Source: Mobula hypostoma (lineage: Eukaryota). Taken from it: DNA of 64,000 nucleotides. The stretch lies in contig NC_086108.1 of assembly GCF_963921235.1 (NCBI RefSeq), positions 72,604,001 through 72,668,000 of the forward strand. The letters are read 5' to 3'. Both the position numbers and the translations under genes were made by a program. The notes beneath the pieces were generated by a model. The model worked only from the letters and a program-made list of their open reading frames with translations. It made no database searches and was not told the DNA's origin. Numbering within the stretch: the stretch's first letter is position 1; every line of letters begins with the position of its first letter. Of this stretch, positions 4,380 through 64,000 are shown in pieces.

Positions 4380-4506
4380 AAACAAGAGAAAATCTATAGA
4401 TGCCGGAAATCCACTCATCTATTTTTCTCTAGTCCTGCTGAAGGGTCTCGGCCCAAAACGTTGACTGTACTTTTTTCAATAGGTGCTGCCTGGCCTGCTG
4501 AGTTCT
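4380..4506. mobile_element. Small Penelope-derived fold-back remnant with mutated hammerhead (4431-4466, +)
   Basis: ~33-nt terminal tail followed by an inverted segment agtc-CTGCTGA-agggtctcggccc-AAAAC-GTT-gact. Confidence 0.7.
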
Positions 4507-4600: not shown

Positions 4601-5744
4601 GCTGGAGGGACAGAGCATCTATTAGAAAAGAGTACAGTTGATGTTTCGGGCTGAGACCCTTCATCAGGACTGGAGAAAAATCATGAGGTCAGAGTAAGAA
4701 GGTGGGGGGAGTGGAGGAAGACAACCAAGATAGTAGGTGACAGGTGAAACTGGGAGGGGGAGGGGTGAAGTAAAGAGCTAGGAAGTAAATTGGTGAAAGA
4801 GATAAAGGGCTGGAGAAGGGGGAGGATAGAAGGCCATGAAAGAAGGGGAAGGAGCACCAGAGGGAGGTGATGGGCAGGTAAGGAGATGAGGTGAGAGAGG
4901 GAGATGGGAATGGTGAGGGAGAGGTAGGGGCACATGACCAGAAGTTCAAGAAATCGATGTTCATGCCATCAGGCGGAGGCTACCCAGACAGAAGATAAGA
5001 TGTTGCTCCTCCAGCCTAAGTGTGGCCTCATTGTGGCAGTAGAGGAGACCATGGACTGACATGTCAGAATGGGAATGGGAAGTGGAATTAAAATGGGTGG
5101 CTACTGGGAGATCCCACTTTTTCTGGTAGATGGAGCGTAGGTGCTTGGTGAGGTGATCTCCCTACCTACTTTGGGTCTTATCGATATACAGGAGGCCACA
5201 CCAGGAGCACCAGATACAGTAGATGGCCCAACAGACTCACAGATGAAGTGTCACCTCACCTGGAAGAACTGTTTGGGGCCCTGAATAGTAGAGAGAGAAG
5301 AAGTGTAGGTGCAGGTGTAGCACTTGTTCCACTTGCAAGGGTAAGTGCCAGGAGGGGAGATCAGTGGGGAGGGAGAAGTGGACAAGAGAGTTTGTAGGGA
5401 GCAATCTCAGCAGAAAGTAGAAAATGGTGGGAGGAGGGAAAGATGTGCTTGGTGGGATCCTGCTGGAGATGTCGGAAGTTAAGGAGAATTAGGTGCTGAT
5501 GCGGAATCAGATGGGGTGGTAGGTGAGGTCAAGAGAAACCCTACCCCTGGAGGGCTGGTGGGAGAACTGGTTGAGGCAAAATGGAAGAGATGCGGGTGAG
5601 GGTAGCATTGATGCTGAGGAAGGTAAGCCCCTTTCTTTGAAGAAGGAGGACATCTCGTTAGTTCTGGAATGAAAAGCAGATGAGGCAGAGATGGAGGAAT
5701 TGAGAGAAGAGGACAGCATTTTTACATCTACCAGGGTGGGAAGA

Positions 5745-8681: not shown

Positions 8682-10243
8682 CAGTGGAAGGTTTGTGAAC
8701 CCTTTAGGATTTTCTCTATTTCTGCATAAATATGGCCAAAAATGTAATCAGAACTTCACTTTTCCTAAAACTAGATAAAGAGAACCAAATTAAATAAGCA
8801 GCACAAAAACATGATACTTGTTCATTTATTTATTGAGAAAAATGATCCACTATTACATGTATTTGTTGAAAAGTATGTGAACCTCTAGGATTATCAATTT
8901 ATTTAAAGGGGAAATTAGAGTCAAGGGTTTCAATCAATGGATGACAATCAGGTGTAAGTGTGGGAGGCCTTGCCCTATTTAAAGAACATAAACCAAGGTC
9001 TTCACTGTCAAAGTCTGATCTTCACCACATAGGGTTTTGGTAGTGTGCCATGCCTCGATCAAAGGAGATTTCTAAGGACCTCAGAACAAAGGTGTTGTTG
9101 CTCACCAGGCTGGAAAAGGATACAAAACCATTTCTAAAGAGTTTGGGCTCCAACAATCCACAGTTGGATGGAACTCAGCACTGTTATTACCCTCCCTAGG
9201 AGAGGTCGACCAACAAAAATCACTCCAAGAGCAAGGTGTGTAATATTCCAGGAGGATACAAAGAATTCCAGGATAACATCTAAGGAGCTACAGGCCTCTC
9301 TTGCATTGGCTAATGTCAGTGTCCGTGAGTCTACCATCAGACAAACACTGAACAACAACGGTATGCATGGCAGGATTGCAAGGATAAAGCCACTACTCTC
9401 CAAGAAGAACATTGCTAACCTTCTAAAGTTTGCTAAAGGCCACGTGGATAAGCCAGAAGGCTATTGGAAGAACTTTCTATGGACGGATGCGTCCAAAATA
9501 GAACTTTTTGGCTTAAATGAGAAGCATTATGTTTGGCAAAAAGCGAACACTGCATTCCAGCATAAGAACCTTATCTCATCTGTGAAACATGGTGGTGGCA
9601 GTTTCATGGTTTTGGGCCGGCCTTGCAGCCTCTGAGCCAGGATGATTTGCCATCATTGATGGAACTATGAATTCTGAAATGTATCCAGAACATGTCAGGA
9701 TATCTGTCCGTGAACTGAAGCTCAAAGTGGGTCATGCAGCAAGAAAGCGACCCTAAGCACACAAGTCAATCTACAAAAGAATGGTCAAAGCAGAAGAAAT
9801 TTCGCACTTCGGAATGGCCAGTTCAAAGTCCTGACCTTAATCCTATAGAAATGTTGTGGAAGGACCTGAAGCAAGCAGTTCATGCAAGGAAGCCCACCAA
9901 CATCCAGAATTGAAGCAGGTTTGTAAAGGGGAATAGCCTAAAATTCCTCCAAGCCAATGTGCAACACTGATCAACAGTTACCAGAAACATTTGGTTGAAG
10001 TTATTGCTCTACAAGGGGGTCGCACAAGTTACTGAAGGCAAAGATCCACGCACTTTTCTGAAAATATATAATATTGGATCATTTTTCTCAATAAATAAAT
10101 AAATGAAAAGTATAATGTTTTGTGTAGTTTATTTAATTGAGATCTCTTTAGGACTCGTGTGAAGATCTGATCACATTTTAGGTCATAATTTATGCACAAA
10201 TAGAGAAAATTCTACAGGGTTCACAAACTTTCTAGCACCACTG
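8682..10243 (+). mobile_element. Tc1-family DNA transposon, IR-DR type, near full length, defective
   Basis: TA TSD (8680-81, 10244-45); CAGTGG...CCACTG ends; ~200-bp imperfect TIRs with outer and inner direct repeats (gtttgtgaacc / gtatgtgaacc). The left TIR has a small deletion near its tip. Confidence 0.95.
9050..10035 (+). pseudogene. Tc1 transposase pseudogene (DD34E spacing)
   Basis: Starts MPRSKEIS...; contains 'RRGRPTKITPR', 'WTDASKIELFG', 'VKHGGGS' and 'QQESDPKH...WPVQSPDLNPIE'. 34 residues lie between the mutated second acidic site and E. Frameshifts and stops present. Confidence 0.93.
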
Positions 10244-19600: not shown

Positions 19601-21605
19601 ATTCAACTTTAGTCTCTGTGCTATCTTTTCCCAAGCTAAAATTCATATTAAGAATGCTGGGAGATTGACGACACAGGCCTTGACCCTTTCTCGATGTATG
19701 CATATGGGTGTGTGTGGACGTTGATGTGTATGTGTCTGTGTAACTGTGTGTGATCATGAGTTTAATCCATGTTTATGCTTATGCGAATATCTGAGTCTCT
19801 ACATGTCTGTGTATAAATAGTTCATTCAATCTAATATTTTATTATTACCCCAACATTTCCATTCGGTCAAGAAGCTGTTTACATCAGTAGCCCAGCACCT
19901 GGTGTGGTATTTAGCTTGATAGATTAGAAGTTCCATATGTGTGTTGATTGTACCTTCCTTCAACCCTGATCCCAGCTGCTGCGCTAAAATTGGTCTCCAT
20001 AAACAGAATCATTCTTGGCTGCGATAGGATGCAAGGTCAAATAGCATAAAAACATGAATAATGGCAGCTGAAGGACCATCGCTTCAGTGTGGCAGCAATA
20101 TTTATTCCTTTTGAAGATAAGTGACACTATTGAGACAATAACAACAAATTGGATATTCCAGAATGATCGTTGCTGAAGTTTGTTCGTTGTCATTTTTCAA
20201 ATTAGAAATTGTCACTCTTGGCCATTAGAAGAGAAAGATGCCACATTGTTGGAACAGCAAAGGTTAGTGCATTGTCCAGTTCCAGGTCACCGTCTTTCAT
20301 TGGGAAGCCCCATAATAAGAGTATAGTCAGTTAATAGCTGTATCTATCATTAAGGTGGTGGAATGATGATAAGTTTTTCAATGTAAAATGTCATTTAAAG
20401 ACAACTGCTGAAACAACAATAATATGGTATATTGAAAATGAACCAGCACTTTGAACCTGAAATCAGACCCCGCTGAGCTGCATCATGACCCTGTCACTTC
20501 ATGATGCTACAAAAACTACATTGGCTTTGACTAAAGTATATAGAAATCGAGAAATTACATTAAAAATAGAGCAAGATTTGTCAAACTGGGGTGCTTTCAA
20601 ACTTTAATCTCCAGGATGAAAACCTTATCATTTCAAGTCTACTACTAATGTTGATATCTGGTTCCCTTAATTCCAATTACAATAATCACAAGCAACATTG
20701 ACATAAACACATCTGGATGCTCCGTCATTATTGTCAGAGTTAGCATTATGATGGTTTAAGCTCTCCACTTTCTAAATGCCCAGAACTAATAGAAATATTT
20801 TTATACTATACACACAATAATGATGTATTATGAATCAGGCTCACTGTGCCTCTGATAGATAAAATAATTTACTTGTTATATAGTTTCTAATTTTAGCAGG
20901 TGTAGGTCCAAATGATATGTAAACCTTATAACAATATAATGGAATTCCATTACCTTTTGTGTGTCAAAATAATCTTTAGTCAATTGGTTTGTGAATACTT
21001 TAAGATAGTGAAATGAAAGTTAGTACATTGCCTGTTGCCTCCATCCTTTTAAAAAGGCCCGAAACTCTATAGTAGAAAGGTTAAGGCGTTTAATTCCTTG
21101 TCCCATACTAGAAAATGGGACAAGTTATCAGTGAGTATTGGAAAGATTTAAAAAGAGAGCTAAGAATGAATGTTTTTAATCAAGAAATCACTGACTGGAG
21201 AAACTGTTTTCACTAAGACAAAGCAGCCAGAAGAGACAGCTACTGTAAGATAGTGAACAAAATAAAGTAAGGTCTTGATTAAAAATATCATTGGCTGGCT
21301 TCTGAGTCAGTAACTAAATAAAAATAATATCATCAAATAAAGAGACTATTTAGGAAAATTATCAGTTTTATGCAGCAAATTAATAAAATTGTACTATCTG
21401 AAACAGTGAAAGCAGACTACTTTTGCAACAGATATGGATAAATATTTGTAAAACAGCCATCTTAAGAGCTGCAGAAGAAAGACTAAAAGATAGCAACTTC
21501 CTTTCTAAAACAACAGGAATTCTGCAGATGCTGCAAATTCAAGCAACACACATCAAAGTTGCTGGTGAATGCAGCAGGCCAGGCAGCATCTGTAGGAAGA
21601 GGTGC

Positions 21606-21641
21606 AGTCGACGTTTCAGGCCGAGACCCTTCATCAGGACT
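21606..21641 (-). ncRNA. Minimal type I hammerhead ribozyme motif (intact core)
   Basis: Minus strand reads AGUC-CUGAUGA-AGGGUCUCGGCCU-GAAA-C-GUC^-GACU: stem I AGUC/GACU, a stem II hairpin, and helix III reduced to palindromic ACGU. Confidence 0.8.
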
Positions 21642-22881
21642 AACTGAAGGAAGAGTGAGTAAGGGATTTGAAAGTTGGAGGGGGAGATCCAAAATGATAG
21701 GAGAAGACAGGAGGGGGAGGGATAGAGCCGAGAGCTGGACAGGTGATAGGCAAAAGGGGATACGAGAGGATCATGGGACAGGAGGTCCGGGAAGAAAGAC
21801 AAGGGGGGGGGCACCCAGAGGATGGGCAAGAGGTATATTCAGAGGGACAGAGGGAGAAAAAGGAGAGTGAGAGAAAGAATGTGTGCATAAAAAAGAGTAA
21901 CAGATGGGGTACGAGGGGGAGGGGGGGCCTTAGCGGAAGTTAGAGAAGTCGATGTTCATGCCATCAGGTTGGAGGCTACCCAGATGGAATATAAGGTGTT
22001 GTTCCTCCAACCTGAGTCTGGCTTCATCTTTACAGTAGAGGAGGCCGTGGATAGACATGTCAGAATGGGAATGGGATGTGGAATTAAAATGTGTGGCCAC
22101 TGGGAGATCCTGCTTTCTCTGGCGGACAGAGCGTAGATGTTCAGCAAAGCGGTCTCCCAGTCTGCGTCGGGTCTCGCCAATATATAAAAGGCCACATCGG
22201 GAGCACCGGACGCAGTATATCACCCCAGTCGACTCACAGGTGAAGTGTTGCCTCACCTGGAAGCACATCTTTCCCTCCCCTCCTCTCTCTGCATTCTGCA
22301 GGGATCGCTCCCTACGCAGCTCCCTATGCAACTCCCTTGTCCATTCGTCCTCCCCATCCCTCCCCACTGATCTCCCTCCTGGCACTTATCCGTGTAAGCG
22401 GAACAAGTACTACACATGCCCTTACACTTCCTCCCTTACCACCATTCAGGGCCCCAAACAGTCCTTCCAGGTGAGGCAACACTTCACACACTCAGGTTGG
22501 AGGAACAACACCTTATATTCCGTCTGGGTAGGGTCCAACCTGATGGCATAACCTTCGACTTCGCTAACTTCCGCTAAGGCCCCACCTCCCCCTCGTACCC
22601 CATCTGTTACTTATTATTTTTATGCACACATTCTTTCTCTCACTTTCCTTTTTCTCCATCTGTCCCTCTGAATATACCTCTTGCCCATCCTCTGGGTCCC
22701 CCCCGCCTTGACTTTCTTCCCGGACCTCCTGTCCCATGATCCTCTCGTATCCCCTTTTGCCTATCACCTGTCCAGCTCTTGGCTCTATCCCTTCCCCCTC
22801 CTGTCTTCTCCTATCATTTTGGATCTCCCCCTCCCCCTCCCCCTCCAGCTTTCAAATCCCTTACTCACTCTTCCTTCAGTT

Positions 22882-22917
22882 AGTCCTGACGAAGGGTCTT
22901 GGCCTGAAACGTCGACT
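22882..22917 (+). ncRNA. Minimal type I hammerhead ribozyme motif (intact core)
   Basis: AGUC-CUGACGA-AGGGUCUUGGCCU-GAAA-C-GUC^-GACU. Confidence 0.8.
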
Positions 22918-23988
22918 GCACCTCTTCCGACAGATGCTGCCTGGCCTGCTGCGTTCACCAGCAACTTTGATGTGTGTTGCTTGAACTTCCTTTCTAAGCT
23001 TATTTTACCAGTTTTAAAGCACGATCATTTAGGAAACATAGCAGAGCATTTGCACACAACAATCTTCCAAAGAGAGAAATATGATCACCTTATTATGTGA
23101 TTTTTAAAATGATAAGTCGTACTGATTGAAGAGAAAAGATTAGTGAGAGAATTTGGAATGATCCCGAAATAGCACCATGAAATATACAAATTAAAATAGA
23201 TCAATTATTGATACGATTAGCATGTTACAGTGTTCAGTGAGAGAGAGAAAGAGGTCCAAGGAGTTGGAGATCTGGCGTAAGTCAAGGATTAATTGAAATT
23301 TTAAAGTCAGGATGGGCAGAAAATGTTTGTGTGTATTTGTATTTGGAGGGTGAGCTGTTTAGTGGCAATAAGCTGCAGGTAGTAGGATCAGGCTTGCTTT
23401 TAGATTGGGGGCACGTGTAGCATCTCAGCTGGATTCATCACAATTGGGTTTTGTGACCAGGTGGGGAAGGGATGGGGAGCAGTTGAGGCCCTCAGGAATG
23501 AAATTAAAATGGGTCTACCTGAAAGAGACTAGGTCCAGGATCTTGTTGGGGAGAGAGACCAGAGATCATAGACGGCAAGATGAAGATATGTATGAGGGTT
23601 CAGATACTGTTCAGTGATGAGGAAATGGTGTGCATGGGAAGATGGGAGTTCTGTCTGATGTTAGACCAAATGATCAAAGGTTTATGTGATCTCGTCTTGA
23701 GGTGGTGTTGGATGATTCGGGCTTGAGTTAATGAAGGCTTTGGGTCAAAGGATTGGGGCTTGAAGGTCGGGTGAGAAAGGTTCAGTAAATTAAGGTCTAA
23801 GGGTTTAAGGTGCCCAGGGGTCAGGTAGACAAGGCTTCAGAGATTCAAGTCATTAGGGCATGAGAATTACATTTAGTTATATATGGGGCTCCTGAAAGAG
23901 GTTCTCAGTTTCAGATCCCTTTTACCAGCATTGAAGCAAGCTTCATGTAAGGTAAAGGGCTATTTTTGCATGGTTCTCATGAAAACAG

Positions 23989-24485: not shown

Positions 24486-24702
24486 CACAAAATACTCTGC
24501 AGATGCTGGGGTCAAAGCAACACTCACAACATGCTGGAGGAACTCAGCAGGCCGGGCAGCATCCGTGAGAACGATCAGTCAACGTTTCGGGCCGGAACCC
24601 TTCGTCAGGTTCCAACGAAGGGCTCCAGCCCGAGACGTTGACTGATCGTTCCCACGGATGCTGCCCGGCCTGCTGAGTTCCTCCAGCGTGTTGTGAGTAT
24701 TG
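24486..24702. mobile_element. Penelope-derived palindromic miniature element
   Basis: ~95-bp inverted arms centred near 24610, each ending in a hammerhead motif (intact core on minus at 24577-24610, mutated on plus). 9-bp TSD CGTCTGAAA at 24477-85 and 24703-11. Confidence 0.9.
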
Positions 24703-24729
24703 CGTCTGAAATCTACTTGACCAATCTAC

Positions 24730-30740: not shown

Positions 30741-31422
30741 ATGAGTTCGAGCAACTCACACAGCGAGGTCTCTCTGAAGCTCCCTACTTCTGGGCCACTC
30801 AGCCCCACGTTTGGTTCGAGCAGGCTGAGGCCCAGTTCAATATCAGCGACATTACAGCCGATGCCACGTGGTCAGCACGCTCGACCAGGAGACGGCAGGC
30901 CAGATCATCGACTTCCTACGCCAGCCACCAATGGAGGACAGGTACACTAAGCTTAAGGTGCTCCTGATCCGTACCTTCGGACTCTCCCGCCGTGAACGGG
31001 CCATGCGGCTCCTACACATGAACGGCCTGGACAACCGCATGCCATCCGAGCCGATGAATGATATGCTGGCGCTCATGGACGGCCATAAGTCGTGCCTTTT
31101 ATTTGAACAGTTGTTCCTCGAGCAAATGCCAGAGGACATTCGCCTCCTCCTCGCGAGTGAGGATTTCCGCGACCCACGCAGGGTCGCGGCTAAAGCAGCC
31201 GTCCTTTGGCAGAGCAAGCAACGTGGAGCAGCCTCCATTGGCCTAGCCACGATCACGCGCCCCAAAGCCCAGGCCCCGCAACTGAAGCCGTCGAGACCCA
31301 CGGGGGAAAAAGATGAAAGTTCGGAACAATGGTGTTTCTACCGCCAAAGGTGGGGCTCAGGCGCGCGCCGCTGCTGTCCACCATGTGCTTTTCCGGAAAA
31401 CGCTGGGGCCAGCCATCACTAA
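30741..31422 (+). pseudogene. gag (frameshifted)
   Basis: 'VSLKLP', 'FWATQPHVWFEQAEAQF' and 'LFEQLFLEQMP' lie in three different frames. C-terminal 'CFYRQRWGSGARRCCPPC' fits C-x2-H-x9-C-x3-C with H replaced by R. Confidence 0.88.
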
Positions 31423-34400
31423 TGGCTACGACGGCTGGCCATCGAGACTACCTCTGGGATCGACGCTCCGGGCGGCGCTTCCTGGTAGACACGGGGGCCA
31501 AAGTCAGCGTACTCTCCCCCTCGAACATGGACACTCGTAACGCAGTCCCAGGCCCCGAACTCACCGCTGCAAATGGCACCAGTATTCGGATGTACTATCT
31601 CAAATACAGCGAACTATCTCACTGCATTTCGGGTCCAGCCATTTTACTTGGACGTTAACGTTGGCAGCGGTGTCACAGCCACTACTAGGGACAGATTTCC
31701 TACAAGCCATCTGCCTCCTGGTTGACGTAAACGGCCGGCGTTTGGTCTACGCCGAGATGTTCCAGACTTTCCGGCTCAGAGAAGCCAAGCTACTGGCCCT
31801 CCACCTGGATTCCGTGACCCCCTCGGGTAACGAATTCGCCAGGGTGTTGGTGGAATTCCCCTCCGTAGTAACCCTGCAGTTCTCCACGGCCGACCCCAAG
31901 CATGGCGTGCAGCACCACATCCCCACGCAAGGACTGCCGCTGCACGCCCGAGCTCGCAGGCTCCCACCCAACAAGCTCTACCTTGCCAAGGAGGAGTTCT
32001 GTAAAATGGAAGGGATGGGAATCGTACGCCGCTCAGACAGCCCGTAGACATCCCCGCTGCATATGGTGCCCAAGTCCGCAGGAGGATGGAGGCCCTGTGG
32101 AGACTACAGAAGGCTCAACAATGCCACAACCGCTGACAGATACCCAGTACCCCACATCCAGGACTTCATGGCGAACCTGCACGGAGCGACCATCTTCTTG
32201 AAAATCGACCTGGTCAGGGGAAACCATCAAATCCCAGTGCACCCTGACGACGTGCCCAAGACAGCCCTCATCACCCCGTTCGGCTTGTTCGAATTCCTGA
32301 GGATGCCTTTCGGTCTCAAGAATGCAGCCCAAACTTTCCAAAGGCTCATGGACTCGGTGGGATGCGGCCTGGATTTCATTTTCATTTACTTGGACAATAT
32401 CCTGGTGGCCAGCTGTTCACACCAAGAGCACGTGGCACATTTGCGCCAGCTCTGCCAACGCCTGAGTGACCACGGACTGGCAATCAATACATCAAAGTCC
32501 CAGTTCGGGCTGATGGAGATCGCCTTCTTGGGCCACAGAGTCAACCGACATGGCGCAGTTCCCCTACCGGACCAGCTCCAGGCCATCCGCCAGTTCCCCA
32601 AGTCCAGCATGGTCAATGGCCTGCAGGAGTTCGTAGGGATGGTTAACGTTTATCATCGGTTCGTGCCGGCGGTGACACGCATCATGAGACCCTTGCTCAG
32701 CCTGATGGCCAACAAGGCCAAAGAGGTGGCATGGGACGCGGAGTCCACGCAGGCGTTCGAGCAGGCCAAGGAGGCGCTGGCAAAGGCGGCCCTCCTAGTG
32801 CACCCGAGAGTCGATGTACCCATGGCACTCACAGTCGACGCTTCCGACACGGCAGTCGGCGGAGTCCTGCAGCAGCTCGTCGAGGACCAGTGGCGACCAC
32901 TCGCTTTCTTCAGCTGGCACCTATGGCCACCAGAGGAGAAGTACAGCACTTTCGACAGAGAGTTGCTAGCATTCTACCTGGCTGTCCAGCATTTCCGGTA
33001 CTTCCTCGAGGGAAGAGAGTTCACCTTGTATACGGACCACAAGCCCCTCACCTTCGCACTGGCCATGGTATCGGACCCATGGTCGGCTCGGCAGCAGAGG
33101 CACCTGTCCTTTATTTCAGAATTCACCACGGACGTCTGCCACATCGCAGGGAAGAACAACGTCATCGCCAACACACTGTCTCACCCCTGCCTCCACTCAG
33201 TAGGCGTATCGTCCTCAGGAACAGACTACGCAGCACTGGCGGAAGCATAATGGTCGGACACCGAGATCCCGGCTTACCGCACCGCCGTTGCGTGGCTCCA
33301 GTTGGAGGACGTCTGCATCGGCCCAGCAGCGGATTGACTCCTGTATGGCCGGCAAACCCCGATCTATGGTACCAGCAGCATGGAGGCGCCAGGTGTTCGA
33401 GATGCTGCATGACCTGGCCCACCCGTCCATCCGGGTGTCCATCAAGCTGGTAGCGGACAGATTGCATGGTTTGCGCAAACAAGTCAGACACTGGGCCAGG
33501 ACCTGCGTACACTGCCACACCGCCAAAGTCCAGCGACATGTGAAGGCTCCCCTCCAGCAGTTCCAGCTGACGCACAGGAGGTTCCATCACATCCACGTGG
33601 ACATCGTCAGCCCCCTGCCAGTCTTCCGGGGCGCCAGGTATATCTTTACCATGGTAGGCAGGTTCACCAGATGGCCGGAAGCCGTACTGCTCAGACACGT
33701 CCACTGAGTCCTGTGCCAGGACGCTCATTACAAACTGGATCGCCAGGTTCAGCCTCCCAACGGACATCACCTCGGACAGAGGGGCGCAGTTCACGTCTGG
33801 TTTGTGGACAGCACTGGCGCAGCTCCTGGGCACCCAGCTGCATCACACCACAACATACCATCCCCAGTCCAACGGTTTGGTAGAGTGATTCCACCGGCAT
33901 CTCAAATCGGCCCTGATGGCGCACCTCAGGGGCCCCAACTGGACAGATGAGCTTCCCTGGGTCCTACTGGGCATCCGCACAGCCCCCAAGGAGGACCTGG
34001 ACACCTCGGCGGAATTGGTCTATGACGCCCCCCTGACGGTCCCAGGCGAGTTCGTACCAGAGGCCCGAGGTTCGGAAGAAACTCCAGCAGCAGTGCTAAC
34101 AAGGCTAACGAGGCTGCGGGACAAGGTAGGGACCCTTGCACCGGTCCCGACCTCCAGGAATGGTCCCACGCCATCCTTCACCCCTAAAGACCTCCGAGAC
34201 TGTGAATATGTTTTTATTCTACAGTGGTGACCAGTACAGCGGCCGTACAAGGGACCCTTCAAGGTGATCCGGCACAATGGAACCACGTGTGTCATGGAGG
34301 TGGGTGGCCGGGAAGAGACTTTTACAGTGGACCGCCTCAAACCAGGGCACTTGGACATTGAGCAACTGGTGAGGGTACCTGCACTGCGCCAGCGAGGCCG

Positions 34401-40079: not shown

Positions 40080-42690
40080 TCAGTATACCCATGATGACTG
40101 TACCAAACATGATGACAATTTAACTAATCACTTCTACTTGGATATGATCCATATCCCGCTAATCTCTGCATATTCACGTGCCTACCTAATAACTCCTTGA
40201 ACACCACTAATCTATCTGCCCCTGCCGCCACTCCTGGCAGTGCATTCCAGGCACTTAACCATCCTCTGGGTAAAAATAATTACCCTACATACACTCATAT
40301 TTCAACCCCCCGCCATCCCCCCCCCCCCCACATCTTAAAGCTATGAACCTACGCCCTTTAGTATTCGGCATTTCTACTCCGGGGCTAAAGAATCTGGCTA
40401 TCAATGCCTCTCCTAATTTAACAAACCTCTATCAGGTCTCCCCTCAGCCTGGAGAAAAAATCTGTGTTTAACCATTCCTTATAGATCAGACTTCCAATCC
40501 AGGTAGCTTCTGGATAACCTCTTCAAAGCCTTCACATCCTTTCTGTAATCGAGTGACCAGAACTCCCGGTGATATTCCAAGTGCATCCTAACCATAATTT
40601 TCATACATCTTCATGGCTTTGTGACTCTTGTATGTTATGTTTCTGACACTTAAAAGACAATCGTATTATATGCCTCCTCTACCTCTCTATCTCCTTGTGT
40701 TGCCACTTGTTAAGAGCAATGGACTTGAACCCATGATCCATCTCTACGTCAATGCTGTCAAAGATCTTGCCGTTAACGGTATACTTTTCCATTGCATGTG
40801 ACCTGTCAGAGAGCAACTTAGCCATATCAAACTCCAACAAATATTTTTCTGCTCGTATCTATGTCCTGTTGTATACTTTGACGATGATCTTCATTCTCTA
40901 CAACTCCACCTCTGCAAGCTTACTAACCAACTCATTACATTTTCATCCAAGACTCTGGAGATCCCAACAATGATCCCTGCAGAACACCACTAGTCACATC
41001 TATCCAACCAGAATAACACTTTTCCGCAATTAACCTGTTTTCTATGGACAAGTCAATTTTGTCTAAAATATCTAGTCACCATGCATCCTAATGCTTCTGA
41101 TCAACCTTCCATGAGAGTCCTTGTCAAATACTTTAGTAAAGTCCATGTAGACAATGTCCATTTCCCTCACCTCATCAAGCGCATAAGGCTTCAAAGAAAC
41201 TCACTCAAGTTTGTAAGACATGACCTGCTCTGTACAAAGCCATGTTGCTTGTCCCTAACAAGTCTATTTTCTAACAAGTTTGATTCCTAAGAATCCTCTC
41301 CAAAAGCTTCCCTACCACTGATGTACAGTTTACCAGCTGATAATTTAAGTTCCCTTCTTAATCAAATGAATATTGGTGACTCTCCAGACTTCCAGGACTT
41401 TACTAAAGCTAGAGAGAAAATAAAGATCTTCAGAAAGCCCCAAAGATTTCCTCATTTCTCTTCCTCAATAATCAGGATAGATCCAATCAGGCCCTGGGGA
41501 TTTATCCACCTTAATACTCTTCAAGAAACCCAACACCTTCTCCTTGATATCAAAATGCATTTGTGTATTAGAATACCCCACTCTGTCTCACTGTCCTCCA
41601 TGTCCTCAGTGAATGCCAACTTACCTGGTGCCTTGCTGGCATCCTCCGAGCCTAAGTGTAAATTCCCTGCCTTATTCTAGAGCAGTCCCACCCTCTTCTT
41701 AGTCACCCTCTTGTTCCTAATGTATGTTAAAAAAAAATGCCTTGGAATTCTCTTTAATCCCACTTACCAAGAATATTTCTTGACTCCCGTTGTCTCTTCT
41801 AATTCCTTGCTTGAGGTCTTTCTCACTTTCTTTATGTTCTTCAAAGGCCCTATCTAATTTCAACTTCCCGAAACTTACCAGAATCAGGTTTATAATCACT
41901 GCCACGTATCATGAAGTTTGTTGTTTAGTGGCAGCAGTACAGTGCACAAATAAAACATTTCTACAGGTTACAATAAGAAACAGTAAGTAGGGAGAGCAAA
42001 AAGTGCAGTATGTTTCCTTTCTCCTCGTGACAGAATTTACAACTTCGCTGGTCATCGGTTATCACTGTTGTCCTTCCCCCCCAAGTGGAGCATCAGTGTC
42101 CTGAACTCTGATCAGCAGGCCTTTAAATGACACCCATGTGTCAGATGTGAGTTTACCAAATAACTGCTGATGAATGCTGTGAGAGCACCTGCCCCCACTA
42201 GTTCCTCAAGTTGTGTGTTTAAGATTGCAACCATTGAGGGGAAAAAAGTTTTCCTCAGAGCCCCTCTAACCCTCTTGCCCCTCACCTTAAACCTATGCTC
42301 TCTGGTCTTAGACGTCACTACCAAGAGGAAAGTTCATTGCAGTCCACCCTCTCCATGCCTCTCACAATTTTGTACACTTCTATCAGTCCACAACCGCCCC
42401 CCAATGTGGAGTGTGCATTCCACACACTTATAACCATATAACAATATAACAATTACAGCACAGAAACAGGTCATCTCGGCCCTTCTAGTCCATGCCGAAC
42501 TTACTACTTACTACTGTCTGTTTTTTAAAAAAAATTACATCTGACAACTCCCTATACTTTCCTCCATTTATCTTAAAGTTATGCCCCCTGGGATGTGCCA
42601 TTTCCCGCCTGGGAAAGAAAATATCTGGCTATCCACTCTATCATCTTATATAGTACACCTCTATCATGTCTCCTTTCATCCATGTTTATT
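40080..42690 (-). mobile_element. Cluster of degraded CR1 fragments with a short Rex-type tail (~41880-42010)
   Basis: CR1 RT remnants ('gactttactaaagtatttgacaagg' on minus), peptides 'IKENSKAFF' and 'SKTREHRFKVRGKR', and a tail at ~42432. Confidence 0.8.
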
Positions 42691-52304: not shown

Positions 52305-53160
52305 CATACACATTGATATATGTCATAAAATGTGTTGTTATGCAGCAGCAGTACAGTGCAATACATAACAATTGCTATAAAATAACATAAAATGTATTAA
52401 AAAGTGCAAAAAGAGAGCAAAATAGCCAAATAAGTTTGGGACCATTCAGAAATCTGACGGTGGAGGAGAGGAAGTTGTCGCTGAAATACTGAGTGTATGT
52501 CGTCAGGCTCCTGTACTTCCTCCCTGATAGGAGTAATAGGAGGTGAACATGACCGGGATGGTGAGAGTCCTTAGTGGTGGATGCATACCAGATAGTGATG
52601 CAACCACTCAGAATACTCTCCATTGTACTTCTGTAGACGTGTGCTTCTCTTTGATAAAGTACCAAATCTCCTCAAACTCTGGCTCCTGCTGTGCCTATTT
52701 CATGATTGCATCAATATGTTGGGCTCAGGATAGATCTTCTGAGATGCTGACACCCAGGGACTTGAAGCTGCTGACCCTTTCCGCAGCTGGCCCCTTAGTG
52801 AGACGGAGATAGGGCCTCTGCCCCTTTCCCCTTCAGTCCTGACAAAGGGTTCAGGCCCGAAACGTTGACTGATCATTTCCACGGATGCTGCCCGACCTGC
52901 TGAGTTCCTCCAGCGTGTTGTGAGTGTTCCCTCGCTGACCACTGCTGAGCTTTCTTCTGGCTTGCCCGTCCTGAAGTCCACCATGAATTCCATGCTCTGA
53001 CTGATACTGAGTGCAAGGTTGTTGCCACGACATTACTCAACCAGTTGAGTAACCATCAGTTGTGTCATTGGCAAATTCATGTATGGCATCTGAACTGTGC
53101 CTAGCTACATAGTCATGAGCTGGGCCTATGTTGATTGTTGGTGAGGAGGAGATGTTATTG
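52305..53160 (-). mobile_element. Rex1/Babar fragment containing a Penelope terminal insert
   Basis: Peptides 'YRSTMESILSGCITIWY...HHPGH..LLLSGRKYRSL' and 'MVDFR'. The Penelope piece at ~52803-52928 has a hammerhead motif at 52835-52870 (+, core CUGACAA). Confidence 0.85.
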
Positions 53161-55849: not shown

Positions 55850-56310
55850 AAATTTGCAGATAGCAAAAATCCAGAATAAAAACAGAAAATACTGGAGATG
55901 CTGAGTGGTTCAGACAGCTCCTGTGGAGAGAGTGAGATAGGTTTCGTATGTGAGATTGATGAAATCAGTTCTGTTGAAAGGTCATTAACCTGAAATGCTA
56001 ACTCTGCTTCTCTGATGTCTGACCTTTGGAATATCTCCAGCAATTTTTCTGTTTAACTTCTTGACAGGGTTTAAATTTCAATTTGAGAATTTAATACCAA
56101 CAATAAAAAGCTGTAAATGGTGGATATCTGAAATAAGAACTGAAGTTTGAAAACTCAGCAGGTCAGGTAGCATCTGTGAAAGGAGAAACAGAGTTAATGC
56201 TTCAAGTCTGAGAACTGACAGTGCATCTTGGACCAAACACTTCCACACTTTCTGTTTTCACAAATGTTGCCTGAACTGCCGAGTGTTTCTAACACTTCTG
56301 TTTTTGTTTT
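55850..56310. mobile_element. Two older Penelope-derived palindromic miniatures
   Basis: Inverted arms 'aaacagaaaatactggagat...atctccagcaatttttctgttt' (~55880-56055) and a second set at ~56100-56310; hammerhead remnant at 55967-56003. Confidence 0.7.
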
Positions 56311-56901
56311 GGGGTTCTCGTCCTCACCTGGACTGAGTCTACAACCAGATTAACAACAGCAGATGTATTTCCCACCAGCAGTCTCAATAACTTCAGAGGC
56401 ACCTAATGAAGGAATCTTTTAACAGTTCTAATGCTAAAAGCCCAACTGCCGTCCGTGGCAAAAGGTAATGTACAATGTACAAGTTTTAGAAACAGACTTT
56501 TATGGCCAGGTATAGTCAATCTTATTTCTAAATGTAATTAAATTATTTTGTAAATATGATGCACTGTTTGTTGTGATACATTACTTTCTACAAGATTTTC
56601 TCTCCTATGAAAAATTTGAAAGCTGTTACCTCCCAAATTTTCACATTTTATAACTTCTCCAATTAGTATTCTATCATATACAGCTGCACATTCCTTTATA
56701 CAAAATTCTGAAATCCAAAAAGCTCCGAAAACCGAAGTTTTTTTCGCCAACAGCTGACGTTACTCAGGTATGACGTGGCAGCACTAGCAGAGGCCGCCAG
56801 ACGTCAGCTGTGGCTCAGCACTCGTATTGGTTACACGTGCATTTGCTGTTCACTGGTATTTTGTGTTCACTGTTGACTTTGTGTTTAATTTCACTGTGGA
56901 A

Positions 56902-57147
56902 ATGTCAAAAAGAGCTGCAGATACCCCTATGGGTAACAATAAGAAAAAGAGAAGGAAGCATCTATCATTATCAGTAACGCAGAAAGTGGAGTTATTGCAA
57001 AAGCTTGATCGTGGTGTGTCTGTGCAGCGTCTTACTGAAGAGTGTGGTGTCGGAACTACCACTGTATATGATTTAAATAAACAGAAAGACAAGTTACTGA
57101 AGTTTTATAGTGACTGTGACAGTGACGTTCTACATTTATTCCAATAA
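56902..57147 (+). pseudogene. Truncated Tigger transposase N-terminal HTH (psq/CENP-B type)
   Basis: MSKRAADTPMGNNKKKRRKHLSLSVTQKVELLQKLDRGVSVQRLTEECGVGTTTVYDLNKQKDKLLKFY; no DDE domain. Confidence 0.85.
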
Positions 57148-57468: not shown

Positions 57469-58987
57469 AGTAGTAGTAGTCATACTCTTATTGATCCAGG
57501 GGGAAATTGGTTTTCGTTACAGTTGCACCATAAATAATAAACAGTAATAGAACCATAAATAGTTAAATAGTAATATGTAAATTATGAAATAAGTCCAGGA
57601 CCAGCCTATTGGCTCAGAGTGTCTAACCCTCCAAGGGAGGAGTTGTAAAGTTTGATGGCCACAGGCAGGAATGACTTCCTATAACGGTCTGTGCTGCATC
57701 TCGGTGGAATGAGTCTCTGGCTGAATGTACTCCTGTGCCCACCCAGTACATTATGTAGTGGATGGGAGACATTGACCAAGATGGCATGCAACTTAGACAG
57801 CATCCTCTTTTCAGACACCATCGTGAGAGAGTCCAGTTCCAATCCCACAACATCACTGGCCTTATGAATGAGTTTGTTGATTCTGTTGGTGTCTGCTACC
57901 CTCAGCCTGCTGCCCCAGCACACAACAGCAAACATGATAGCACTGGCCACCACAGACTCGTAGAACATCCTCAGCATCATCAGGCAGATGGTAAAGGACC
58001 TCAGTCTCCTCAGGAAATAGAGATGGCTCTGACCCTTCTTGTAGACAGCCTCAGTGTTCTTTGACCAGTCCAGTTTATTGTCAATTCATATCCCCAGGTA
58101 TTTGTAATCCTCCACCATGTCCCCACTGACCCCCTGGGTGGAAACAGGGGTCACCGGTACCTTAGCCCTCCTCAGGTCTACCACCAGCTACTTAATCTTT
58201 TTCACATTAAGCTGCAGATAATTCTGCTCATACCATGTAACAAAGTTTCCTATCGTAGCCCTGTACTCAGCCTCATCTCCCTTGCTGATGCATCCAACTA
58301 TGGCAGAGTCATCAGAAAACTTCTGAAGATGACAAGACTCTGTGCAGTAGTTGAAGTCCGAGGTGTAAATGGTGAAGAGAAAGGGAGACAAGACAGTCCC
58401 CTGTGGAGCCCCAGTGCTGCTGATCACTCTGTCGGACACACAGACACGTACTGTGGTCTGCCAGTCAGGTAATCAAGAATCCATGATACCAGGGAAGCAT
58501 CCACCTGCATCGCAGTCAGCTTCTCCCCCAGCAGAGCAGGGTGGATGGTGTTGAACACACTGGGGAAGTCAAAAAACATGACCCCCACAGTGCTCGCTGG
58601 CTTGTCCAGGTGGGCGTAGACAGGGTTCAGCAGGTAGACGATGGCATCCTCAACTCCTAGTCGGGGCTGGTAGGCGAACTGGAGGGGATCTGAGTGTGGC
58701 CTGACCATAGGCTGGAACAACTCCAGAACAAGTCTCTCCTGGGTCTTCATGATGTGGGAGGTCAATGCCACCGGTCTGTAGTCATTGAGGCCGCTGGGGC
58801 GCGGCGTCTTTGGCACAGGGACGAGGCAGGACGTCTTCCACAGTACAGGAACCCTCCGGAGCCTCAGGCTCAGGTTGAATACATGGCGAAGTACTCCACA
58901 TAGCTGAGGGGCACAGGCTTTGAGCACCCTGGTACTGACACCATCCGGTCCTGCAGCCTTGCTTGGGTTGAGACGTTTCAGCTGTCT
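57469..58987 (-). mobile_element. Rex1/Babar LINE, 5'-truncated
   Basis: Peptides 'KAAGPDGV', 'NDYRPVALTS', 'TGAPQGTVLSPFLF', 'QKFSDDSAIVG' and 'FLPVAIKLYN'; (TAC)n tail; GAAAT at 57464-68 and 58988-92 is a candidate TSD. Confidence 0.95.
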
Positions 58988-59489
58988 GAAATGCAACTGA
59001 CCGCAAGGATTTTGTATAAGGGATTGTGGGCCTGTACTAATGAAACTGGGTATTGAAACTGTACAAACTCAACTTACAAAACGGACTCTGTGGAACTACT
59101 TATGCTACAGCATCCTTCTTCATACTTTTCAACCTCCCTTCAGTTCTTGTGATGGTGGCATCTGACTTCAATTCCTTATTTCAGCCTTTGTTTTGTGCTC
59201 CATTCCACTACTGCCAATCTGTGGGTAACAGCATCTCTCGTTGCCCCTACACTTTTACTTCTGAACAATTGAAGATCCAATTTTGGCTTCAATGTCCTAC
59301 CTTTGTTATACTCCTCAATCTGTCAATATCCAGTCAGTTTTTAGCTAAATGTCTTCCAGTGAAAAGGGGTGAGGAAAGTTTCAGCTTTTGTCATAGAGTC
59401 ATAGAGCAATACAGCCCAGATACACGTCCTTCAGCCTAACCAGTCCTTTCTCACCCTTTTGCATTGCAGTTTGAGCCAAGAACATTTAG

Positions 59490-59850: not shown

Positions 59851-60126
59851 TTTGTTGCTTTAGTTTGTGACGATTCTGCTGAAAAAAAAACAGGAAAAGC
59901 TGCAGATCTGAGATAAAAGCAGCAAGTCAGGCTGCATTTGTGGAAACAATATTACAGGTTGGTCACTGACCTAACACATTGAATCTTACCTTCCTCCCAT
60001 AATAACAGCTCAATCTTCCAAGTGCCATCATAATTCTGTGCTCTTGCACCAGGTTCGGTCTGTTCTGCGACATACAGGAAAGGGTGGTTAACTGAAATTG
60101 ATGAATTCAGTATTGAACTCCAAGCA

Positions 60127-60313
60127 ATGCACATAGAAGTTGCTGGTGAACGCAGCAGGCCAGGCAGCATCTCTAGGAAGAGGTACAGTTGACGTTTCAG
60201 ACCGAGACCCGTCGACTGTACCTCTTCCTAGAGATGCTGCCTGGCCTGCTGTGTTCACCAGCAACTTTTATGTGTGTTGCTTGAATTTCCAGCATCTGCA
60301 GAATTCCTGTTGT
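60127..60313. mobile_element. Penelope-derived palindromic miniature (same subfamily as 21509-22985)
   Basis: ~70-bp inverted arms plus a one-sided tail; 14-bp TSD TTGAACTCCAAGCA at 60113-26 and 60314-27. Confidence 0.92.
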
Positions 60314-60768
60314 TTGAACTCCAAGCATGGGCTCGATGGAAGATGAGATGTTGTGCCTTGAATTTACCTTTACTGGAAAAACATAAGAGGGTAAGCAGCG
60401 ATGGCCCCATCCCACATGAAGTTAATACTTTCCTGGCCAGCCTCCTTTCCTCTTATCTGTGAACCTCACCTCATCCATTGACTTAATTACACTACTTCCC
60501 AACCGAAATCCACCTAATCTTTACACACATCCCACTGGCATTTGACTCCCAGTGCTCCACATTTCAAATTGTCTGTATTGTGTTGAAATTGTTCTTTACT
60601 TCAATTGTTTGCATGATTTGTATTTTTTCTTCCCCTTGGACATTGAGGGCTGGTCTTTTATTTATATTTTTATTCTTTTTTTATCAGGTTCTTTCTGGTT
60701 TCTTGCTTTGTCGCTACCTCTAAGCAAGCAAATCTCAAGGTTATATAATTCATACATACTTTCATAAT

Positions 60769-62786: not shown

Positions 62787-64000
62787 TTTACTTTACTTTA
62801 TTACTTTATTGTCAACAAACAATTGATACTAGAGCATACAATCATCACAGCGATATTTCATTCTGCGCTTGGCGCTCCCTGGAGTACAAATCAATAGTAA
62901 ATATAATAAAAATTTAAATTATAAATCATAAATAGAAAATAGAAAATGGAAAGTAAGATAGTGCAAAAAAACCGAGAGGCAGGTCCGGATATTTGGAGGG
63001 TACGGCCCAGATCGGGGTCTGGATCCGTTCAGCAGTCTTATGACAGTTGGAAAGAAGCTGTTCCCAAATCTGGCTGTACGAGTCTTCAAGCTCCTGAGCC
63101 TTCTCCCGGAGGGAAGAGGTCCGAAAAGTGTGTTGGCTGGGTGGGTAGGGTCCTTGATTATCCTGGCAGCACTGCTCCGACAGCGTGTGGTGTAAAGTGA
63201 GTCTAACGACGGAAGATTGGTTTGTGTGTTGTGCTGCGCCGTGTTCACGATCTTCTGCAGCTTCTTCCGGTCTTGGACAGGACAACTTCCATACCAGGTT
63301 GTGATGCACCCTTGAAGAATGTTTTCTACGGTGCATCTATAAAAATTAGTGATGGTTTTAGGGGACAGGCCAAATTTCTTTAGCTTTCTCAGGAAGTAAA
63401 GGTGCTGGTGGGCCTTCTTGGCAATGGACTCTGCTTGGCTGGACCAAGTCAGGTCATTTGTGATATTGACCCCGAGGAACTTAAAGCTTCTGACCTGTTC
63501 CACCTACGCACCACTGATGTAGATGGGGTCATGCGGTCTGCTACTCCTTCTGAAGTCAACAACCAATTCCTTCATCTTGCTGACGTTGAGGGATAGGTTA
63601 TTGTCTTTGCACCATGCCACCAGGTTCTTAATTTCCTCTCTGTACTCAAACTCATCATTACCCGAGATACGGCCTACAATTGTGGTGTCATCAGCAAACT
63701 TATATATTGAGTTCGATGGAAACTTTGCTGCACAATCCTGGGTGTACACTGAATACAGCAGGGGGCTGAGTACACAGCCTTGTGGGGCACCGGTGCTCAG
63801 AGTGATTGTAGAGGAGAGCTTGTCCCCTATTTTTACAGCCTGGATCCTGTCTGTGAGGAAGTTGAAGATCCAGCTGCAGATCTTAGGATCTTAGTGCTAA
63901 GGCCCAGGTTCCAGAGCTTTGGAATCAGTTTATTTGGAATGATGGTATTAAAGGCAGAGCTGTAGTCAATGAAAAGGAGCCTTACATATGCGTCTTTATT
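62787..64000 (-). mobile_element. Young Rex1/Babar LINE, runs off the window end
   Basis: ORFs 63504-63749 ('[11 protein letters not shown]') and 62919-63503 are in frame, separated by one stop. An 8-bp duplication (gatcttag, ~63879-94) causes a frameshift. (GTAAA)n tail. Confidence 0.95.

Follow-up and report, generated by a model that had tools for sequence, protein, structure and literature searches.

The two hammerhead motifs in the arms of the fold-back at 21509-22983 are very probably intact copies of the minimal hammerhead of a young, very high-copy Neptune-type Penelope-like element (PLE), carried by a dead head-to-head insertion in an intron of a PI3K gene. The prediction is that they are masked there, and cutting of the host RNA by them is unlikely. 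The insertion lies in the window (the whole 64,000-nt stretch of ray DNA analysed) and is made up as follows:

21495-21508 (no strand), left target-site duplication of 14 bp, identical to 22984-22997
21509-22266 (-), left arm, comprising the endonuclease end, the 3' non-coding pLTR and the tail; 96% match to the element copy L062 over 763 nt
21509-21539 (-), PLE tail of ~31 nt, in the left arm only; the right arm ends at 22983, opposite 21540
21606-21641 (-), minimal type I hammerhead, intact by descriptor scan and core check; predicted cut 21610/21609; antisense to the host transcript
21930-22266 (-), coding end of the GIY-YIG endonuclease with CCHH residues (Pfam and translation); stop codon at 21930-21932
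22261-22983 (+), right arm, no tail; maps to L062 4850-5064 and 5284-5775
22393-22419 (+), remnant of a CX4CXXC zinc-finger linker (translations), with the second Cys replaced by Tyr here and kept as Cys in L063
22882-22917 (+), minimal type I hammerhead, intact by descriptor and folding; predicted cut after 22913; host-sense and by prediction paired with the left arm
22984-22997 (no strand), right target-site duplication of 14 bp, identical to 21495-21508

A sequence-only reading of the window had described the succession AGUC-CUGA(U/C)GA-helix II-GAAA-C-GUC-GACU in both arms, in the sense of the element and 3' of the endonuclease stop, and the sequence itself and a descriptor scan confirmed it at these positions, 288 and 304 nt beyond the stop codon in the two arms. 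On the plus strand, 22882-22917 reads AGTC CTGACGA AGGGTCTTGGCCT GAAA C GTC GACT, with C at position N7 and C17 at 22913; the left-arm motif (21641 to 21606, minus strand) is the same except for CTGATGA (N7=U) and the loop CTCG. The core (C3UGANGA9, G12AAA and NUH) is unchanged in both arms, and helix I (AGUC/GACU) pairs at 4/4 positions in each, within the 4-5 bp expected of the class. Helix III is, as had been proposed, cut down to the palindrome ACGU in both arms, which gives the palindromic 15.2/16.2 positions typical of these ribozymes; 15.2 can pair with 16.2 in all 14 intact motifs found in 600 kb of evenly spaced sampled stretches. The predicted register of helix II includes the extra A and closes with G-U, not G10.1-C11.1, and position 11.1 is U in 113 and C in 17 of 132 young copies. 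The descriptor search suggested earlier, run in strict form (full core, 4-bp helix I, 3-bp helix II and no more than one base separating GAAA from NUH), returned exactly two matches in the 64,000-nt window, both of them the arm motifs, against a mean of 0.005 and a maximum of 1 in 200 dinucleotide shuffles.

Five related motifs had also been listed in the window. They are present, but none is intact, all of them having core or helix changes:

4431-4466 (+), decayed motif with A6C, G12A and GUU, likely of the older A6C subfamily
4636-4671 (-), decayed motif with G16.2A and helix I 3/4, at the end of an older PLE copy extending to ~5300
24577-24612 (-), GUU-subfamily motif with helix I 2/4, in the short fold-back 24517-24703
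52835-52870 (+), GUU-subfamily motif with G8A and GUU
55967-56003 (+), old decayed motif with A6U and U16.1C

The second arm of the 24517-24703 fold-back bears a motif (24608-24643, plus strand) more decayed than that at 24577. This fold-back and another at 60115-60315 are both centred on the ribozyme; the latter has its starts 4 and 23 nt upstream of the cut and is without the CUGANGA core.

Mapped on the near-full copy L062, the insertion 21509-22983 consists of two 5'-truncated PLE copies placed head to head. It has no RT, its sole coding part being the endonuclease end (21930-22382, minus strand, matches Pfam GIY-YIG with E 3.3e-5), and a 219-nt deletion at 22487 has removed most of the endonuclease from the right arm. 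A search for tRNA found none. The arms (21509-22020 versus 22487-22983) differ by 4.6%, in part at sites that are polymorphic in the family, and six changes private to the right arm fall within 32 nt; the median difference in 28 other arm pairs is 3.5%, versus 5.5% for random pairs. A single-template model gives no simple explanation of these arm differences, and one insertion built from two different template RNAs is possible. An ADAR-type scar between the arms was not seen, the 22 arm differences being of mixed kinds. Genome copies fall into two 3' end classes, with and without the tail; among 124 young copies, 63 have the tail and 41 an inverted partner within 1.6 kb. Inverted truncated neighbour copies and a one-sided tail have been described for PLEs (PMC8557442). 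The insertion would have arisen through copying of RNA from both nicked strands by the endonuclease-RT of the element, starting at the two internal start sites.

For the family to which the arms belong, nine longer copies were retrieved from the genome, with frames of 588-936 aa and the same C-terminal residues. The longest frame (936 aa) matches both RVT_1 and GIY-YIG, in each case under the Pfam cut-off, and the single ORF with RT and C-terminal GIY-YIG that defines EN+ PLEs is found in the family, not in the copy at this locus. Among named proteins, the best matches carry the labels Mobula (88-95%) and Hypanus (79-81%), which makes the host a ray. Ahead of the endonuclease, L063 encodes the linker CKRNKCYTC, which conforms to the CX2-5CxxC motif between RT and endonuclease that marks Neptune and Nematis (PMC8557442); by this linker and the vertebrate host, rather than by a tree, the element appears to be a Neptune-type PLE. 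A pLTR organization like that of EN+ PLEs is seen in the partial tandem, the inverted arm and the one-sided tail. At 65 exact pLTR-ORF junctions genome-wide the tail continues into the next unit, and in most of the 30 junctions fetched the ORF opens at MPTPKKF after the tail, its ATG lying ~140 nt past the predicted cut and preceded by an upstream ORF of 16 codons. The junctions and the position of the ORF start past the cut place the motif in the pLTR, as published (PMC4209133), a source that also supports what the sequence-only reading had put forward, namely a PLE with a type I minimal hammerhead in its terminal repeat and a palindromic helix III implying a dimer. We considered readthrough or selenocysteine decoding from an ATG 21 nt past the cut and rejected it, the ORF being opened by an ATG of its own downstream of the tail. 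Source elements would carry the motif between the stop codon of one unit and the ORF of the next, that same ~140 nt before the ATG, and its cleavage would require a tandem dimer or the help of a protein. Short head-to-tail pLTR tandems with same-sense hammerheads 130-435 nt apart occur in L071, L072 and L051, and it is these, not the fold-back, that would be the natural dimer substrates.

Immediately 5' of helix I, 22864-22885 (plus strand) shows a branch-point-like CTCAC, a pyrimidine tract and CAG; in older subfamilies YYYYCAG runs into helix I, and the whole pLTR is pyrimidine-rich. The intron of Drosophila virilis Penelope ends at helix I (PMC4209133). A check for such intron ends, made on four contig runs whose RNA nature is a guess, gave GT..AG ends at 0/15 of the joints listed out of 132.

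The exact 34-nt form of the motif occurs 38,661 times in the genome (3.48 Gb) and the loop-free intact core 59,673 times, about one per 58 kb, the reversed control being 0 in both cases; a form with a one-base loop insertion gave 101 matches. By profile search, the window contains 13 related ends, compared with 31 over 200 kb of flanking DNA and 98 over evenly spaced stretches totalling 600 kb. As the counts in the window are like those in the flank and the sampled stretches, the window is typical, and the high local density claimed earlier is nothing special.

Folding was predicted at equilibrium, for RNA without protein, Mg2+ or tertiary contacts. In the motif alone, the GACG of the core is predicted to pair with the cleavage site (-10.0 vs -4.6 kcal/mol); the best predicted fold of the homodimer is inactive (-34.5 kcal/mol, vs -11.1 for the double hammerhead), and C at N7 favours the inactive fold. 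Hammerhead dimers have been reported to have low activity (PMC4209133), 8 of 9 Xenopus dimers gave no cleavage (bioRxiv 10.64898/2026.07.22.740005), and work on hammerhead dimers is cited in a review (PMC6765202). In the PLE PAc, cleavage requires the PLE protein, and hammerhead mutants leave in vitro insertion unaffected (PMC11167929).

We compared conservation within the single ray genome; a metagenome scan for hammerheads in distant relatives confirmed 0 of 137 candidates. Among 132 young motif-spanning copies, a sample that includes copies chosen by protein search, the non-CpG core differs by 1.2%, versus a flank median of 2.3%. Core CpG positions decay by 4-8%, like flank CpGs, and the CpG losses in inserted copies affect G8, C15.2, G16.2 and C17. 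Subfamily-diagnostic sites number 0 in the core and helix I, 1 at position 11.1 and 8 in the flanks. Because inserted copies decay near-neutrally, selection is visible between subfamilies and not between copies. The core-versus-flank comparison across genomic copies, proposed earlier as a refuting test, must accordingly be read with caution. When 185 of the 329 profile matches were clustered by flank, they fell into two young clusters and four older, small ones (4, 4, 4 and 3 copies). The majority motif of the older clusters is nearly unchanged, with divergence in the upstream flank and at +4..+17, and the full core and palindrome appear in the dominant family and in the majority lines of 3/4 older clusters (one with GUU). 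Column conservation is 0.93 vs 0.67 (p 3.5e-4, 145 rows) in a test biased by the presence of the motif in the profile, by foreign upstream DNA from truncated copies and by the inclusion of young copies. Four older clusters with different flanks agree with conservation in independent lineages, in a biased sample where a block downstream is equally kept. This 25-nt block, +18..+42 after the cut (e.g. 22931-22955), is conserved across subfamilies as much as the core and is a candidate binding site for the protein of the element.

We consider it unlikely, though worth weighing, that the motif has been retained for its fold or as a recognition site for protein or RT, with catalysis vestigial in the family. 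Cores without A6 number 1,193 (C in 64, G in 26 and U in 10 of the first 100), and of the 14 A6C loci retrieved, 9 have the flanks of the older family; to judge from these flanks, an older subfamily with the A6C core has spread. Such a spread would favour vestigial catalysis, A6C nearly abolishing Mg2+ cleavage in another hammerhead (PMC7151607), as would a second subfamily with GUU in 84 of the first 100 of its 1,218 matches. The replacement of the conserved G10.1-C11.1 pair through U11.1 in 113 of the 132 young copies, the inactive fold favoured by C at N7 and the block 18-42 nt past the cut, conserved like the core, point the same way. However, GUU satisfies the NUH rule, and the catalytic core and palindrome have been kept in the dominant family and in three of the four older clusters despite diverging flanks. 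A6C is, moreover, a known natural variant of low activity (PMC3088659).

With regard to the host, the entire window falls within one intron:

1-64000 (+), inside a single 138-kb intron, bounded by the exons L106:250-328 and L113:4330-4461, of a gene for a p85-type PI3K regulatory subunit

In a scripted exon scan, a RhoGAP exon 34 kb beyond the window end was matched (E 5e-9; p85-alpha 171-209, E 2.8e-9), and the upstream exon matched p85-alpha 117-144 weakly (E 0.006, designed helical proteins scoring higher). A 25-codon exon between p85-matching exons has AG/GT ends and fitting phases, and no PDB match. The exon matches, AG/GT ends and consistent phase place the window inside a p85-type PI3K intron, on the plus strand. 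The p85-type exons (L105:4532-4620, L106:250-328, L113:4330-4461 and L118:3115-3198) spread over ~190 kb, and the 138-kb intron falls within the RhoGAP/BH domain of the gene. An exon candidate at 40682-40858 was rejected, no relative having been found; it is presumably an old LINE remnant.

Only the motif of the right arm is host-sense, that of the left arm being antisense. In the predicted fold of the insertion, 35/36 motif bases pair with the other arm on either strand, and 35/36 bases of the right-arm motif are still predicted to pair with the left arm when the RNA ends directly after the motif. As the arm motifs are opposed in direction, the prediction is that the mirror copy masks either one. 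The left arm would be transcribed just before the right-arm motif, and the pairing would form as the host pre-mRNA is made. The nearest intact same-sense GUC motifs lie in other introns, one ~90 kb upstream of the motif (window coordinate about -66.9 kb) and one ~99 kb downstream of it (about +122 kb), and the 138-kb intron has no other intact sense GUC motif. Beyond both arms and the 4431 and 52835 copies, the motif list of the intron holds six more decayed or GUU motifs; with these and with two sense GUU motifs (helix I 3/4) 50-56 kb downstream, a weak partner remains conceivable. The motifs of the intron are 6 sense and 4 antisense, without depletion of the sense strand in this one intron.

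The earlier suggestion that intact copies could cut a host pre-mRNA if two same-sense copies pair is therefore unsupported for the fold-back locus, given the opposite strands, the predicted arm pairing, the lack of an intact sense GUC partner in the intron and the homodimer energies (-34.5 vs -11.1 kcal/mol). From the predicted folding, it is unlikely that the arm hammerheads cut the RNA of the host gene. More generally, that intact intronic copies cut host pre-mRNA, whether by pairing in cis or in trans with another copy of the same sense or with the aid of the protein of the element, seems to us very improbable. In its favour, the p85 intron does contain an intact motif in sense orientation, that of the right arm; the 59,673 intact cores are so many possible partners, and cleavage in vitro has been reported for dimers and for monomers assisted by protein (PMC4209133, PMC11167929). 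However, the motif is predicted to be buried in a long arm-to-arm duplex, its closest intact same-sense GUC counterparts are ~90-100 kb off in other introns, and the double-hammerhead fold lies 23 kcal/mol above the dimer minimum. The low published activity of dimers, including the uncleaved 8/9 from Xenopus (PMC4209133; bioRxiv 10.64898/2026.07.22.740005), and the 6 sense versus 4 antisense motifs in this one intron also speak against such cutting.

To see where insertions start, we located the 5' end of each of 124 young copies that had an anchor 3' of the motif, leaving out 18 others that were selected on the motif or too close to an edge; the copies come mostly from the first 3 Mb of one contig, and paired arms are not independent. 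None of the 124 starts within 2 nt of the cut. Starts number 11/124 at +9..-19, 37/113 at -20..-49 and 12/76 at -50..-79 (Fisher p 4.5e-6 and 0.011), and further up their rate drops to ~0.1-0.2% per base. Genome-wide, the nested counts fall from 119,404 to 104,972 across the 8 nt that follow the cut (a loss of 12.1%) and from there to 95,099 across the 8 nt that precede it (9.4%). The tail is found in 8/11 of the shortest-reaching copies vs 14/37 of those in the pile-up, and the -20..-49 pile-up may be a length effect. With no starts at the cut and no step in the nested counts, cleaved RNA is not the main template, as for PAc (PMC11167929). Cleavage would not be needed to make the template, since insertions run through the cut site, and both the upstream pile-up and the A6C spread fit a cleavage dispensable for insertion.

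Tentatively, the young insertions might record the in vivo role of the motif, the RT passing the cut site and stopping over or just before the 5' half of the ribozyme (37/113 at -20..-49, ~10 times the rate further up), so that the place where short and fold-back insertions end would depend on the fold of the ribozyme, or on a splice site or RNA start at its 5' edge, rather than on cleavage. The opposite idea, that cleavage creates the 5' end of the copied RNA and insertions begin at the ribozyme cut, is barely tenable: the starts of 4/124 copies do lie 3-5 nt ahead of the cut (window position 60210 being one of them), but none lies within 2 nt of it, the nested genome counts show no step there, and both arms of 21509-22983 extend >600 nt past it. 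Finally, it is next to inconceivable that the arm hammerheads are chance matches to a short motif: although the bare CUGANGA..GAAA pattern is not in excess in the window (8 vs 7.0 by chance) and an Rfam scan of the window matched no hammerhead family, the strict descriptor result (2 vs 0.005), the fixed place in the element and the reversed-pattern controls of 0 contradict this.

We retain the reading of the arm motifs as intact PLE hammerheads, probably masked, in a dead insertion. The window contains other mobile DNA as well: an LTR-type retroelement with DUF7041, RT and RNase H matches (~30800-33900, plus strand), LINE-like RT fragments with ends matching ALKBH8_N (57609-59068 and 62922-63890, both minus strand), a Tc1-type transposase piece (9138-9632, plus strand) and a CENP-B-type transposase piece (56788-57144, plus strand). 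Both the insertion pattern of PLEs and their hammerheads are already published, and the locus is an ordinary dead retroelement fragment with a known motif. What the ray adds is statistical power on the role of PLE hammerheads in vivo, from ~60,000 near-identical intact cores in one genome; the counts support the in vitro finding of cleavage-independent insertion and suggest that 5' ends concentrate at a hot spot next to the ribozyme. Cutting of pre-mRNA by intronic copies would, if it took place, be felt across the whole genome, a prospect to which the analysis gives no support.

Our literature search found no paper on ray PLE hammerheads; supplements of published work may list motifs from cartilaginous fish. 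The motifs at this locus resemble the minimal hammerheads of metazoan PLEs (PMC4209133) in being type I, with a 4-bp helix I, an extra base between 9 and 10.1, palindromic 15.2/16.2 and no helix III loop, and in occurring mostly singly, in truncated copies; Cervera and De la Pena (2014) had also described pairs on opposite strands, 100-700 bp from each other. The ray differs as a host unnamed in the first half of that work, in a short helix II (3-4 bp, usually with G10.1-U11.1) and in copy number, with 59,673 copies versus ~4,000 in coelacanth and ~9,000 in Xenopus, counted by a different method. With canonical EN+ PLE insertions of the Neptune/Nematis type (Craig et al. 2021, PMC8557442) the locus shares the C-terminal GIY-YIG with CCHH, the CX2-5CxxC linker, 5' truncation, the inverted truncated neighbour, the 30-40-bp tail at one end and the pLTR hammerhead. 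Unlike them, it has neither RT nor a tandem pLTR-ORF-pLTR and consists of two short opposed 3' ends.

Non-LTR retrozymes also have type I hammerheads derived from PLE pLTRs (PMC7229834; bioRxiv 10.64898/2026.07.22.740005). They are, however, head-to-tail tandems, which permit dimer cleavage, whereas the locus is head-to-head and coding-derived; with its inverted arms, it does not consist of head-to-tail units each carrying a hammerhead. PAc, the Poseidon element of Anolis (Frangieh et al. 2024, PMC11167929), has in common with the ray family the two 3' end classes, an AT-rich target, a hammerhead near the pLTR-ORF junction and no sign of ends at the cut. The clades differ by their linker, and the PAc ORF starts inside helix II, whereas the ATG of the ray ORF lies ~140 nt past the cut, behind its 16-codon upstream ORF.
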